DNA from: Bacteroidota bacterium
GTDB taxonomy: Bacteria; Bacteroidota; Bacteroidia; Chitinophagales; CAMDFR01
Length of the DNA stretch: 64,000 nucleotides
Assembly: GCA_037130135.1 (NCBI GenBank)
Contig: JBAXTO010000009.1
Location: forward strand, 17,276-81,275
Reading direction: 5' to 3'
Below, in pieces: positions 56,388-59,405 of this stretch; the first letter of the stretch is position 1; every line of letters begins with the position of its first letter. Under the pieces are notes generated by a model that saw nothing but the letters and a program-made list of their open reading frames with translations, did not search any database and had not been told where the DNA came from. Made by a program: the position numbers and the translations under genes.

Positions 56388-59300
56388 ATGAAAAGAATCT
56401 CTCTTATTTCAAACTCAAGTATTCAGTATCACAAATTTAATTCTGAAGTTAATTTAGATTTTGCAAAAAAAAATAAGATATATTTTCACCAACCTTTTGA
56501 TTCTAATATTTTAGATTTCACATTAGATGCTTTATTTAAGGTTACTAATGAAAGCGTGGATACCTTTTATAGAAAGCAAGAGTTGATTGATCGAGATTTA
56601 ATAGTTAATAATAAATTGAAAGATGAAGTTGACTTATCTAATTGCCGTGAAATTGTTGATTTTTACGAAACTAATAATCTTAAAAAAGCTTTAAAGCATT
56701 TTAAGAAGAAATGGATCCCATTACCCTATTTTAAAGACAATTCTATAAATAAAGATGTGATGTATCCAACAGATTGGGTTCGTTTTTATTTTGATTGTGA
56801 TGAAGAATATAAAAAAGTGGAAATAGTTTTAGCTATTGATACTACTTTGTCAAAAAATGATGCTGATAAAACAGGTCCTCAGTTAAGTTTGAACCCTGAT
56901 GAAAATATCTTTAAAATTCATACTAACGATATAAATATTAGTAATTTTTTATTTAGCACTAATGCTACCACCTCATGGATTGAAGGGTATTTAGCAGATG
57001 TTTTTTATGCTAAAAATGATGAGTTGCGATATGAACAACCCGTAAAACAATACGTTTCTCACTATATCTTATTATTGAAGTGGATTGAAAGTTTAAAAGA
57101 AACACCCGAATTACAACTTTTTACTGATGATATCAAGAAAATTTCCGTTGATTTAGTTATTGATATTGGTAATTCTGCAACTTGTGCTTTGTTGTTTGAA
57201 AATCAAAATGATGATGCTTTTACCTTTGAAAAAGTAAAAAAAATAAATATTCAAGATTACTCCAATCCTCATCTGGAATATAATGATCCTTTTCCAATGA
57301 ATTTAGTTTTTAGGGAATCAAATTTTGGTACCATTAACAAAGAAAAATACCATAATAATAAATTTACTGTCCCTAGTTTTGTTAGGATTGGTTTTGAAGC
57401 AGAAAGTATCATTAATAATGCAAGTATTAACCTTAATTTAGGGTATGAGTTAAAGACATACAATTCTAGTCCCAAAAGATACCTATGGGATAAAAATCCA
57501 GCCGAAAAAGAATGGGAATTTTACCCAACAGATTTCAATAAAATTAAGAAAGTATATCTTAGTGGTATTTCAGAACAATTAAAAATTGACGGAGCCTTAA
57601 CAAATGGTGAAGTTTTTGGTTCGAAATCATTGTTTTCTAGAAATTCCTTAATGAAGTTTGTCTTCTTAGAACTTTTGATTCATGCTTATGTGCAGATAAA
57701 CTCCTACAGCTTTAGAGAGGAGCATGGCAATCTAACCGTTCCAAGAACATTAAAAAGGATTACTATTTCTTGTCCTACTGGAATGATCCAATACGAGCAA
57801 ATTGCCTTACGCGAAGCAGCAGAGGACGCATGTAAATTATTAAACAACTATGTCAAGTTTTATTTTGACTCAAACGACAATAAGTTTTGGTTTGAATTAC
57901 CCGAAATTATTCCTTCAATTAAGGACATTGCCAAAAAATTACCTGATTTAGAAGAACGTAAAGATTGGATGTACGATGAAGCCACTAGTTGCCAATTAGT
58001 ATTTATTTATAGTTTGTTATCAAAAAAATTACAGGGGAATAATTATGTAATTGAAAATTATTTATTCAAAAACAAAGATAAAATCACCGTTGGTTCTATT
58101 GATATTGGTGCTGGAACCACTGATGTAATGATTGCAAATTATTCTTTAAACAAAGAACATAAAACAATAAATATTAAACCCAATCCGCAATATTGGGATA
58201 GTTTTAAATTAGCAGGGGATGATCTATTAAAAGAAATCATTCAGCAAGTAATCATTGAAGGAACAGTAAATTCTGCTGTTGATGAGGGCTGTACAGGAGT
58301 CATTGAAAATTTTGCAAAATCAAAAGGAATAAGTAATATTTCTGATAAACTAAATGGCTTTTTTGGTCAGGATACCAATAATATCGGATATCTAGCCAAA
58401 ATGATGCGTAAATCTTTTATTCATCAAGTTGCCATTCCTATTGCTATCCATTACTTGAAAAATGCCAACAGCAAGAATAAATCAATAGTAAGCTTTGAAG
58501 AAATTATAGGTAAAGAGTTTAAAAATAAAGAATTGATTAATTATTTTGAGAAACATTTTGGTTTTAATTTTTTAGAAATAAAATGGAATATTAGTTCTCA
58601 AAAAATAAATGCAATAAATAGATCCGTTTTTGATAGCATTGTTAAACAGCTTTGTTTGGTTTTAAATCAATACCAATGTGACTTTGTGATTCTCTCCGGG
58701 AAACCTTGCTCTCTCGATAGTTTAGAAGAAATGTTTTTGAAATACCTCACCATTTCACCGAATAATTTAATCAATTTAAATACCTATTGGATCGGTAAAT
58801 GGTTCCCTTATTCTGATAATAGAGGTTTTGTAGAAGACCCGAAAACAATGGTAAGTGTTGGAGCAATCATAGCTTTAATGGCTGGGAAATTGAACAAGAT
58901 AAACGATTTAAAAGTGAATACTGATATCATTAAACAAAAATTAGTTTCTACTGCAGATTACATAGTAAAGAGCAATCACAATACTAAAGAAATTATCCTC
59001 ACCCCCAAGAAAAATGAAAATTCAGTTATGGTGCAGGCTTTACCATACCAGTTTGGATACGCAAAATATATTTCCAAAAACTATCCTGTTTCTGATTTGT
59101 ATAGCATTAGCCTCGATAGTTCAGAAATAAATAAAGCAGTAAAAATTCGTTTACCTAACAAGGAGCAATTATTTTATGAGGAACAAATCAACCTTGAAAA
59201 AAATCGAATATTTCAAAACTTACCACTAAAAATCACTTTGTCTAGAGAGTTAGATGATTCTAAAGAACAACTGAAAATTGAAAGTGTTGAAGATGCCGAA

Positions 59301-59405
59301 GGAAATGATAAACCAAATAAATTCTTCAAGCTAAATTATCAAACGTTAGATAACCAGAATGGTTATTGGTTAGATACTTGCGAGTTTATTTTAAGTGCTA
59401 GATAA
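56388..59405 (+). CDS. SrfB-like protein: large actin/Hsp70-fold (ASKHA) ATPase
   Basis: 1005 aa, the same size class as Salmonella SrfB. Phosphate-1 motif VDLVIDIGNSATCA (D259 at nt 57162). Phosphate-2 motif GSIDIGAGTTDVMI (nt 58101..58124). Adenosine-type motif DFVILSGKPCSL. Other SrfB-like landmarks as I recall the family: N-terminal LISNSSIQYHKF, SPKRYLWD, FKLAGDDLL. No signal peptide or TM segment. Confidence 0.8.
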   Translation: MKRISLISNSSIQYHKFNSEVNLDFAKKNKIYFHQPFDSNILDFTLDALFKVTNESVDTFYRKQELIDRDLIVNNKLKDEVDLSNCREIVDFYETNNLKKALKHFKKKWIPLPYFKDNSINKDVMYPTDWVRFYFDCDEEYKKVEIVLAIDTTLSKNDADKTGPQLSLNPDENIFKIHTNDINISNFLFSTNATTSWIEGYLADVFYAKNDELRYEQPVKQYVSHYILLLKWIESLKETPELQLFTDDIKKISVDLVIDIGNSATCALLFENQNDDAFTFEKVKKINIQDYSNPHLEYNDPFPMNLVFRESNFGTINKEKYHNNKFTVPSFVRIGFEAESIINNASINLNLGYELKTYNSSPKRYLWDKNPAEKEWEFYPTDFNKIKKVYLSGISEQLKIDGALTNGEVFGSKSLFSRNSLMKFVFLELLIHAYVQINSYSFREEHGNLTVPRTLKRITISCPTGMIQYEQIALREAAEDACKLLNNYVKFYFDSNDNKFWFELPEIIPSIKDIAKKLPDLEERKDWMYDEATSCQLVFIYSLLSKKLQGNNYVIENYLFKNKDKITVGSIDIGAGTTDVMIANYSLNKEHKTINIKPNPQYWDSFKLAGDDLLKEIIQQVIIEGTVNSAVDEGCTGVIENFAKSKGISNISDKLNGFFGQDTNNIGYLAKMMRKSFIHQVAIPIAIHYLKNANSKNKSIVSFEEIIGKEFKNKELINYFEKHFGFNFLEIKWNISSQKINAINRSVFDSIVKQLCLVLNQYQCDFVILSGKPCSLDSLEEMFLKYLTISPNNLINLNTYWIGKWFPYSDNRGFVEDPKTMVSVGAIIALMAGKLNKINDLKVNTDIIKQKLVSTADYIVKSNHNTKEIILTPKKNENSVMVQALPYQFGYAKYISKNYPVSDLYSISLDSSEINKAVKIRLPNKEQLFYEEQINLEKNRIFQNLPLKITLSRELDDSKEQLKIESVEDAEGNDKPNKFFKLNYQTLDNQNGYWLDTCEFILSAR

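Follow-up and report, generated by a model that had tools for sequence, protein, structure and literature searches.

We analyzed a 64,000-nucleotide stretch of DNA from a Bacteroidota bacterium (contig JBAXTO010000009.1 of assembly GCA_037130135.1, positions 17,276 to 81,275 of the forward strand; this whole stretch is called the window below) and found that a 1005-amino-acid (aa) protein encoded in it is SrfB, whose core is a divergent Hsp70-type nucleotide-binding domain (NBD). The gene is followed by srfC, encoding a dynamin-like GTPase, and by genes for membrane-anchored proteins, the first of which carries a domain resembling the N-terminal domain of SrfA (SrfA-N). Most likely, the protein is a Bacteroidota member of the SrfB family that acts as a cytoplasmic Hsp70-type ATPase together with the dynamin-like GTPase on SrfA-N adaptors. 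The SrfB family was already known and the gene already named; the main gain is a testable mechanistic frame, that of an Hsp70-like SrfB paired with a dynamin-like SrfC. An earlier note on this DNA, made from the sequence alone, had described the protein as a very large, noncanonical ATPase of the sugar kinase/Hsp70/actin (ASKHA) class with no recognized substrate or partner domain.

The open reading frame (ORF) begins with ATG and has the length given in that note.

56388..59405, forward strand: srfB, encoding an SrfB-family protein of 1005 aa whose core is an Hsp70-like ATPase, as identified from the ORF, PF07520, the NCBI name, an AlphaFold2 (AF2) model and Foldseek

In a Pfam search, PF07520 (Virulence factor SrfB) covered residues 3 to 998 with an E value of 5e-156 (521.8 bits against a cut-off of 27.1, spanning positions 11 to 989 of the 992-position model); the protein belongs to this named family from end to end. 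NCBI holds an identical protein under the name "MAG: virulence factor SrfB [Bacteroidota bacterium]" (MAG, metagenome-assembled genome), and the closest named relatives are Flavobacterium proteins of ~85% identity. This full-length match, and the identification of the 926-aa partner as SrfC, overturned the earlier statement that there was no recognized substrate or partner domain. When 1.84 billion representative proteins were searched with a profile, 1289 family members were found at E ≤1e-3, mostly of ~1000 aa, with no spill-over into Hsp70; for many of the distant homologues, the alignment began only at about residue 90 to 100. In a collection holding one genome per species, at least 592 stretches encode a SrfB relative, and the module occurs widely among Bacteroidota, both free-living and from the gut. 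The locus counts given below refer to the best 80 of these at least 592 stretches, nearly all of them from Bacteroidota, and L numbers denote contigs carrying the compared srfBC loci. Among 2.9 million viral contigs, a single one carried a SrfB locus, implying that the module is not phage-borne, and 114 of the 144 records matched in a plasmid search were from Klebsiella. NCBIfam gave no match for SrfB, SrfC or the downstream genes.

The evidence for the ATPase lies first in the motifs. Conservation was followed in 83 SrfB homologues from Bacteroidota and Proteobacteria that are 23 to 91% identical to the window protein, including those of Ewingella, Klebsiella, Gluconobacter and Mesorhizobium (Enterobacterales and Alphaproteobacteria). 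The Escherichia coli DnaK sequence used as the reference was verified against the DnaK chains of the PDB. Eight Hsp70-like motifs lie collinearly in SrfB, with their key residues present in 82 or 83 of the 83 sequences.

57147..57188, forward strand: phosphate-1 motif VDLVIDIGNSATCA (aa 254-267), aligning with DnaK IGIDLGTTNSC (D8); SrfB IDIGNSxTC corresponds to DnaK IDLGTTNSC and D259 to D8
57465..57491, forward strand: SSPKRYLWD loop, a candidate for the Hsp70 catalytic-lysine motif, DnaK AIKRLIGR, with K363 probably equivalent to K70
Next in order: ITISCPTGM..E, matched by eye only to DnaK VITVPAYF
57972..57986, forward strand: YDEAT motif, aligning with Hsp70 INEPT (E531 corresponding to DnaK E171)
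58092..58133, forward strand: phosphate-2 motif GSIDIGAGTTDVMI, aligning with DnaK DLGGGTFD (D194, T199); it contains DIGAGTTD (aa 572-579, nucleotides 58101-58124), in which D572 corresponds to D194 and T577 to T199
58212..58223, forward strand: AGDD motif, aligning with Hsp70 GGEDFD; SrfB LAGDD corresponds to DnaK LGGEDFD
58680..58715, forward strand: adenosine motif DFVILSGKPCSL (aa 765-776), aligning with DnaK DDVILVGGQTRMP; SrfB ILSGKP corresponds to DnaK ILVGGQ, with G771 in the adenosine loop
58836..58877, forward strand: helix DPKTMVSVGAIIAL, aligning with Hsp70 NPDEAVAIGAAVQ, the final NBD helix; SrfB DPKTxVxVGA corresponds to DnaK NPDEAVAIGA

The three ASKHA motifs (phosphate-1, phosphate-2 and adenosine) were thus found in the order and at the places given in the earlier note, and D259, D572 and G771 are invariant among the homologues. 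Also present in all 83 sequences are G261 and N262 of phosphate-1 (S263 occurs in 81), D530 and E531 of YDEAT, G574, G576, T577 and D579 of phosphate-2, A609, G610 and D611 of AGDD, P773 of the adenosine motif (D765 occurs in 82), K819 and G825 of the final helix, R364 of the SSPKRYLWD loop, and P463 and E470. K363 is found in 82 sequences, the remaining one having Arg. The ITISCPT segment was probably misplaced by hhalign; by eye, P463 falls on P143 of DnaK. The two phosphate aspartates, D259 and D572, are 313 residues apart, close to the ~310 previously estimated, versus 186 for D8 and D194 in E. coli DnaK. Of the window's 52 stop-to-stop segments with a length of 100 aa or more, no other showed a loose pattern of the three motifs, and neither did any of 20000 shuffles of SrfB.

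Judged by these alignments, SrfB retains an intact set of Hsp70-type catalytic residues. Because D259, K363, E531, D572 and T577 are invariant, with the one Arg at position 363 noted above, we infer that SrfB most likely binds Mg-ATP and hydrolyzes it, probably by the same chemistry as Hsp70.

The second line of evidence is the fold. An AF2 model of SrfB, built from a 40-sequence alignment, had a mean pLDDT (predicted local distance difference test score) of 72.3 and a predicted template modeling score of 0.66, with a poorly predicted stretch at ~302 to 417. A Foldseek search of the PDB with this model returned 214 matches at E ≤1e-3, and all of the top 50 were chains of the Hsp70 superfamily. 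The best was DnaK (4jn4_A, E = 4.7e-13; also 4b9q, 7ko2 and 5nro), and BiP, Hsp110/Sse1 and Ssz1 were among them as well. Chains consisting of the NBD alone gave target-normalized template modeling (TM) scores of 0.56 to 0.60 (for 7rax, E = 2.8e-10 and TM = 0.60). The order of secondary-structure elements in the model agrees with that of the Hsp70 NBD, and both RNase-H-like lobes are present, as seen by the match to Hsp70 NBD chains.

Comparison of alignments with hhalign pointed in the same direction. The SrfB core (aa 240-840, 83 sequences) matched the DnaK and Hsc70 NBDs over DnaK residues 4 to 387 with an E value of 8.1e-5 and 61% probability, versus an E value of 0.095 for the reversed template. 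Against DnaK alone, the 83-sequence alignment gave E = 0.003, and the 40-sequence alignment recovered the phosphate-2 motif only (E = 0.004). The inclusion of Hsc70 in the template was needed both for the E value of 8e-5 and for the pairing of K363 with K70; with DnaK alone, K363 was paired with K55. The equivalence of K363 and K70 is therefore graded as probable.

Taken together, these results show that the SrfB core is a divergent Hsp70-type NBD. The proposal of an ASKHA fold with large insertions stood, but its generic breadth did not: the resemblance is specifically to Hsp70, with at least four Hsp70 signatures beyond the three ASKHA motifs. In every comparison that could be made, the protein has the features of the SrfB family and of ASKHA proteins, whereas by the membership tests of the Hsp70 family itself it falls outside that family. 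The literature that we searched held no paper tying SrfB to Hsp70, ASKHA or actin-like folds, although domain databases may already do so, and the SrfB fold is readily obtainable from public structure predictions.

The same data bear on two other readings of the core. SrfB could be an actin-like polymerizing ASKHA protein of the MreB, ParM or FtsA type, given that DIGAGTTD resembles the phosphate-2 motif of MreB and FtsA and that the sole additional Pfam hit on SrfB at E ≤10 was an FtsA fragment of 15 residues on phosphate-2 (E = 0.016; 16 bits against a cut-off of 31.8). We regard this as highly improbable: no actin, MreB, ParM or FtsA chain, and no sugar kinase, appeared in the Foldseek top 50, and the signatures DEAT/NEPT, AGDD/GGEDFD, DPKTxVxVGA/NPDEAVAxGA and PKRYL/IKRLI (SrfB/Hsp70) are specific to Hsp70. 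Alternatively, SrfB might be a pseudo-ATPase, with the shape of Hsp70 but no catalysis, that serves only as a scaffold holding SrfC and SrfA together. Ssz1 and Hsp110 are Hsp70 relatives that act largely without hydrolysis, both are among the fold matches of SrfB, and the SrfB sequence has diverged extremely from that of Hsp70. Conservation of the Mg-ATP-coordinating and catalytic residues in 82 to 83 of 83 sequences, down to 23% identity, would be unexpected for a dead site and implies that at least nucleotide binding is under selection, and we consider the scaffold improbable.

The Hsp70-type NBD occupies about aa 246 to 835 of SrfB and is flanked by two further domains.

56388..57122, forward strand: N-terminal domain of SrfB (about aa 1-245), mixed beta/alpha, without an assigned known fold
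58893..59402, forward strand: C-terminal beta-rich domain of SrfB with two helices (aa 836-1005), delimited by AF2 secondary structure

As the earlier note had proposed, a domain of about 245 to 250 residues precedes the first motif. Its pLDDT is mostly 75 to 90, and residues 1 to 245 gave no hhalign signal to DnaK and have no detectable relative. Within the NBD, an insertion of ~120 residues follows the first beta-sheet of lobe I; it is of low pLDDT, yet it holds the invariant SSPKRYLWD loop. Lobe IIB is enlarged and mostly helical (aa 624-735). Full-length Hsp70 and DnaK chains in the ATP state outscored NBD-only chains in Foldseek, with no rise in TM-weighted coverage, and the better scores of the full-length chains hint at a C-terminal domain in SrfB that resembles the Hsp70 substrate-binding domain (SBD); in hhalign, aa 836 to 1005 matched the DnaK SBD no better than a reversed control did. 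SrfB should be cytoplasmic, because no signal peptide or transmembrane helix was found in it. Compared with Hsp70 (DnaK, BiP, Hsc70 and Hsp110/Sse1), SrfB thus shares the best structural match and the collinear NBD motifs but differs in the spacing of the phosphate aspartates, in its extra 245-aa N-terminal domain, and in having no demonstrable SBD, lid or DVLLLD-type linker. It also differs in its partner, which is a dynamin-like GTPase.

59531..62311, forward strand: srfC, encoding a 926-aa dynamin-like P-loop GTPase (G1 motif GGSQVGKS, G3 motif DFPG)

SrfC matched PF10139 in Pfam (E = 3.6e-109), and srfC directly follows srfB in 78 of the 80 loci. An AF2 model of SrfC (pLDDT 83.8) was matched by Foldseek to SynDLP (E = 9e-9), to the bacterial dynamin pair of PDB entry 5oxf (2e-6) and to the Nostoc bacterial dynamin-like protein BDLP (7e-6), and more weakly to MxB, dynamin, mitofusins and Fzo1. 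The model comprises a GTPase domain and a helical stalk, and both the P-loop GGSQVGKS (GxxxxGKS) and DFPG are invariant; no canonical G4 motif (NKxD or TKxD) was apparent in SrfC by eye. On this structural evidence, SrfC is classed as a dynamin-like GTPase. It shares the P-loop and DxPG motif with the Nostoc, SynDLP and 5oxf proteins, and unlike other bacterial dynamin-like proteins, it matches PF10139 and not the dynamin Pfam families. No paper in the literature that we searched tied SrfC to dynamin or assigned it a fold. Among dynamin-like proteins, LeoABC of enterotoxigenic E. coli is linked to vesicle-associated toxin release. We know of no dynamin-like protein that has an Hsp70-like ATPase as its obligatory partner.

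In the window, srfB and srfC are separated by 125 bp, which a 39-aa ORF (MYINVEEFIEARKKVNFKSIVDKDFNGFFCENTIQLIKK; 59409-59528, forward strand) fills; gene calls for this ORF exist in the near-identical contigs L086 and L087. In the closest relative from the genome collection (L001, CALRRY020000020.1), SrfB is 91% identical and the gene order is the same. There, srfC begins ~10 nucleotides after srfB, so the 39-aa ORF is probably not conserved. The L001 contig is labeled "MAG: Variovorax paradoxus," its content is Flavobacterium-like, and it is probably mis-binned.

No neighbor of srfB in the window matched canonical SrfA (NCBIfam NF040486) even at E ≤10, whereas SrfA of Ewingella scored 570 bits with this model. 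In its place, downstream of srfC, is a set of membrane proteins.

62317..63030, forward strand: 237-aa protein with an SrfA-N-like cytoplasmic domain, an acidic linker and a C-terminal transmembrane helix
63033..63527, forward strand: 164-aa protein with an N-terminal transmembrane helix and a Cys-containing beta-rich domain
63536..64000, forward strand: 5' part of a gene for a transmembrane-anchored S8 subtilase, cut by the end of the window

In BLASTP, the 237-aa protein was collinear with the N-terminal domain, linker and transmembrane helix of Ewingella SrfA (E = 2e-4). A hidden Markov model (HMM) of its N-domain detected an annotated Klebsiella SrfA at 9e-19 and matched an ORF adjoining srfBC in nearly all loci; the profile was confined to the N-domain because an iterated search with the full length drifted into the S8 domain via fusion proteins. 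The 164-aa protein is kept downstream in 15 loci, and its profile also matches the long SrfA-N/S8 fusions, in which its mid-protein placement would follow from gene order. Over its 155 aa, the S8 fragment shares 99% identity with the start of a 463-aa Peptidase_S8 protein in L087, and its orthologue in L001 matches PF00082 at 3e-49.

In Bacteroidales and Runella these pieces are fused into proteins of ~900 aa in the order SrfA-N, transmembrane helix, S8. Peptidase_S8 was found in 27 of 38 long SrfA-N proteins, and in Mesorhizobium SrfA-N is fused to a trypsin-like peptidase (Trypsin_2). In Enterobacterales, SrfA-N carries a periplasmic lipocalin-like domain (bioRxiv 10.64898/2026.09.18.752743). 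Given these variable modules, SrfA-N behaves like an adaptor in the cytoplasm, carried by single-pass membrane proteins whose outward-facing parts differ. No Rosetta-stone fusion of SrfA-N to SrfB was found among 150 family representatives.

Canonical SrfA is thus replaced here by a downstream, split and membrane-anchored equivalent. Like SrfB of the srfABC operons of Salmonella enterica and Xenorhabdus stockiae, the window protein matches PF07520 end to end, has ~1000 aa and is directly followed by srfC, and it has the same invariant motifs as SrfB of Ewingella and Klebsiella. Its identity to the proteobacterial proteins is only 23 to 26%, with the first 90 to 100 residues often unaligned. 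Two things set the operon apart from enterobacterial srfABC, its gene order and its split, protease-bearing SrfA equivalent: it has no NF040486 SrfA upstream of srfB and has the SrfA-N/transmembrane, transmembrane/beta-rich and transmembrane/S8 proteins downstream.

These features suggest how the system might work. SrfB and SrfC would come together on the SrfA-N adaptor, on the inner side of the cytoplasmic membrane, and the ATP and GTP cycles of the two proteins would remodel the membrane or the adaptor. This remodeling would in turn control the export, release or activation of outward-facing cargo, here the beta-rich protein and the S8 subtilase. In Xenorhabdus, SrfA, SrfB and SrfC coimmunoprecipitate as a heteromeric complex (PMC6950479), and an AlphaFold3 model has SrfA as a platform that binds SrfB and then SrfC (bioRxiv 10.64898/2026.09.18.752743); the proteins of the organism studied here may form a similar complex. 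Tentatively, then, we suggest that SrfB and SrfC are not toxin subunits but the two nucleoside triphosphatases (NTPases) of a machine at SrfA-N adaptors that drives cargo export, vesicle release or activation, a possibility that we hold to be on the doubtful side.

The literature view is a different one, namely that SrfB belongs to a secreted toxin of three subunits that acts inside eukaryotic cells, the ASKHA fold of SrfB being incidental to toxicity. When made in E. coli, Xenorhabdus SrfABC shows cytotoxicity toward both insect and mammalian cells, and SrfA, SrfB and SrfC each enter HeLa cells (PMC6950479). Several observations argue against its application here. Neither SrfB nor SrfC has a signal peptide, their SrfA-N partners are anchored in the membrane, and the module's wide distribution in free-living and gut Bacteroidota, in at least 592 stretches, does not suggest a toxin. 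The invariant, housekeeping-type catalytic residues of the NTPases fit a machine that acts in the producer cell, and a 2026 preprint argues against export by a type III secretion system (bioRxiv 10.64898/2026.09.18.752743). We consider a toxin subunit distinctly unlikely.

A number of points weigh against an Hsp70-type ATPase working with SrfC at a membrane. At the level of the sequence, PF00012 (HSP70) does not match SrfB in Pfam even at E ≤10, and the link to Hsp70 is invisible to plain sequence methods, including searches of PDB sequences with SrfB (phmmer) and with its profile (hmmsearch), which found nothing relevant; the family is also small, with its 1289 matches in 1.84 billion representatives. 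As to the structure, the quality of the SrfB model is only moderate, the SSPKRYLWD loop lies within an insertion of low confidence (pLDDT <50), and the convergence of the motif residues on one pocket would follow from the superposition on Hsp70. With regard to function, no gene of the locus encodes a J-domain (DnaJ) or GrpE cochaperone, unlike the situation for Hsp70, though such proteins may be encoded elsewhere in the genome; the proposed role at the membrane draws on gene context and analogy; and the published functional data concern cytotoxicity, not membrane remodeling (PMC6950479).

The analogy is with endocytic membranes of eukaryotes. There, Hsc70 and dynamin act on one membrane-bound assembly. 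The parallel with SrfB and SrfC would be one of function only, the adaptors being nonhomologous.

The surroundings of srfBC vary among loci. The left flank differs even between near-identical strains: in L087, the genes upstream of srfB encode Fic, metallophosphatase, MBOAT and GDSL lipase proteins, a flank wholly different from that of the window, and the left boundary of the module therefore lies just before srfB. Upstream of srfB in the window is a possible accessory gene.

54951..55586, forward strand: gene for a 211-aa DUF805 membrane protein (PF05656), possibly an accessory gene

A DUF805 ORF (~210 to 250 aa, with the DUF805 domain at the C terminus) on the srfBC strand occurs in 15 of the 80 loci (L004 to L006, L020, L042, L045, L055 and others), immediately before srfB in Sphingobacterium and Pedobacter and behind the SrfA-N/S8 gene in Bacteroidales, and is missing from the closest relatives, L001, L002 and L087; its product may be an accessory subunit. 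A 63-aa ORF at 56184-56375 was rejected as part of the system, being conserved only in near-identical strains. Scans for sigma-70 promoters and terminators gave results at or below the expectation from shuffled sequence.

Other loci differ in their right flanks and in their SrfA-N genes. In L087 (16671-20912), the S8 subtilase gene is followed by four genes on the same strand encoding 294, 416, 460 and 246 aa, and the 416-aa product has a weak match to PF19975 (DO-GTPase1), which we take to be a family from NTPase-based conflict systems. The 93-kb plasmid pSP2_1 of Runella sp. SP2 (L082, 1-5724) carries a srfB, srfC, SrfA-N/S8 module; BREX genes (pglZ, brxL) and one for a restriction endonuclease lie directly upstream of it. 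On Gluconobacter and Klebsiella plasmids (L083 and L085), two or three tandem SrfA-N paralogues, one of them annotated as a "tellurite resistance domain protein," lie upstream of srfBC, and downstream are a gene for a sel1-repeat protein (Gluconobacter) or a hypothetical protein (Klebsiella) and then, in both, one for a vWA-domain protein.

These neighborhoods raise the idea that SrfB, SrfC and a protease-bearing SrfA-N protein form an NTPase-driven conflict or defense system in which the NTPases sense or transduce a signal and the protease is the effector. Besides the BREX genes next to the Runella copy, the vWA and sel1 proteins near the Klebsiella and Gluconobacter copies, the DO-GTPase1-like gene in L087 and the variable left flank, the variation of the C-terminal modules of SrfA-N (S8, trypsin, lipocalin and Ig-like domains) would fit such a system. 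Still, PADLOC gave only a 12-bit match of SrfB to PDC-M61B, in the phosphate-2 region, and none for SrfC, so that no defense model matches SrfB meaningfully. The proteases are oriented to the outside, not toward an invader within the cell, SrfB was found on only 1 of 2.9 million viral contigs, and the association with defense islands is anecdotal. A defense function is, in our view, unlikely, and a cytoplasmic Hsp70-type ATPase partnered by SrfC on SrfA-N adaptors is the reading that we prefer.

Elsewhere in the window, which has a GC content of 32%, the reverse strand between 37298 and 50258 encodes two proteins of ~1430 to 1440 aa with CHU_C type IX secretion sorting domains, one of which also has DUF7948 and PKD domains, next to a PorP/SprF protein, an arginase-family protein and a PD40-repeat protein; the cluster looks like a typical arrangement of type IX secretion cargo and shuttle. 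The AT-richness of the window, the type IX secretion cargo and PorP/SprF agree with a chromosome of the Flavobacterium kind. Two overlapping reverse-strand ORFs within 53237-54137 (53237..53815, 192 aa; 53751..54137, 128 aa) both encode MORN_2 repeats; a frameshift or a sequencing error may have divided a single gene. On the forward strand at 29346-34826, ORFs of 1440 and 378 aa without a Pfam match at E ≤1e-5 directly follow the gene for a 1279-aa TonB-dependent-receptor-like protein (CarboxypepD_reg and Plug).

Since 2000, annotations have listed SrfABC as a "virulence factor" or "toxin" without a biochemical mechanism. The Hsp70-type site of SrfB, the dynamin-like SrfC and the modular, protease-bearing adaptor now provide concrete, testable handles, and they move the focus from the target of a toxin to the effect of an NTPase pair on a membrane or a cargo. 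If SrfB and SrfC do act as such a machine, they would be a bacterial counterpart of the cooperation between Hsp70 and dynamin at eukaryotic membranes, and the toxicity attributed to SrfABC would be explained as the delivery of cargo (S8 or trypsin proteases or a lipocalin domain).

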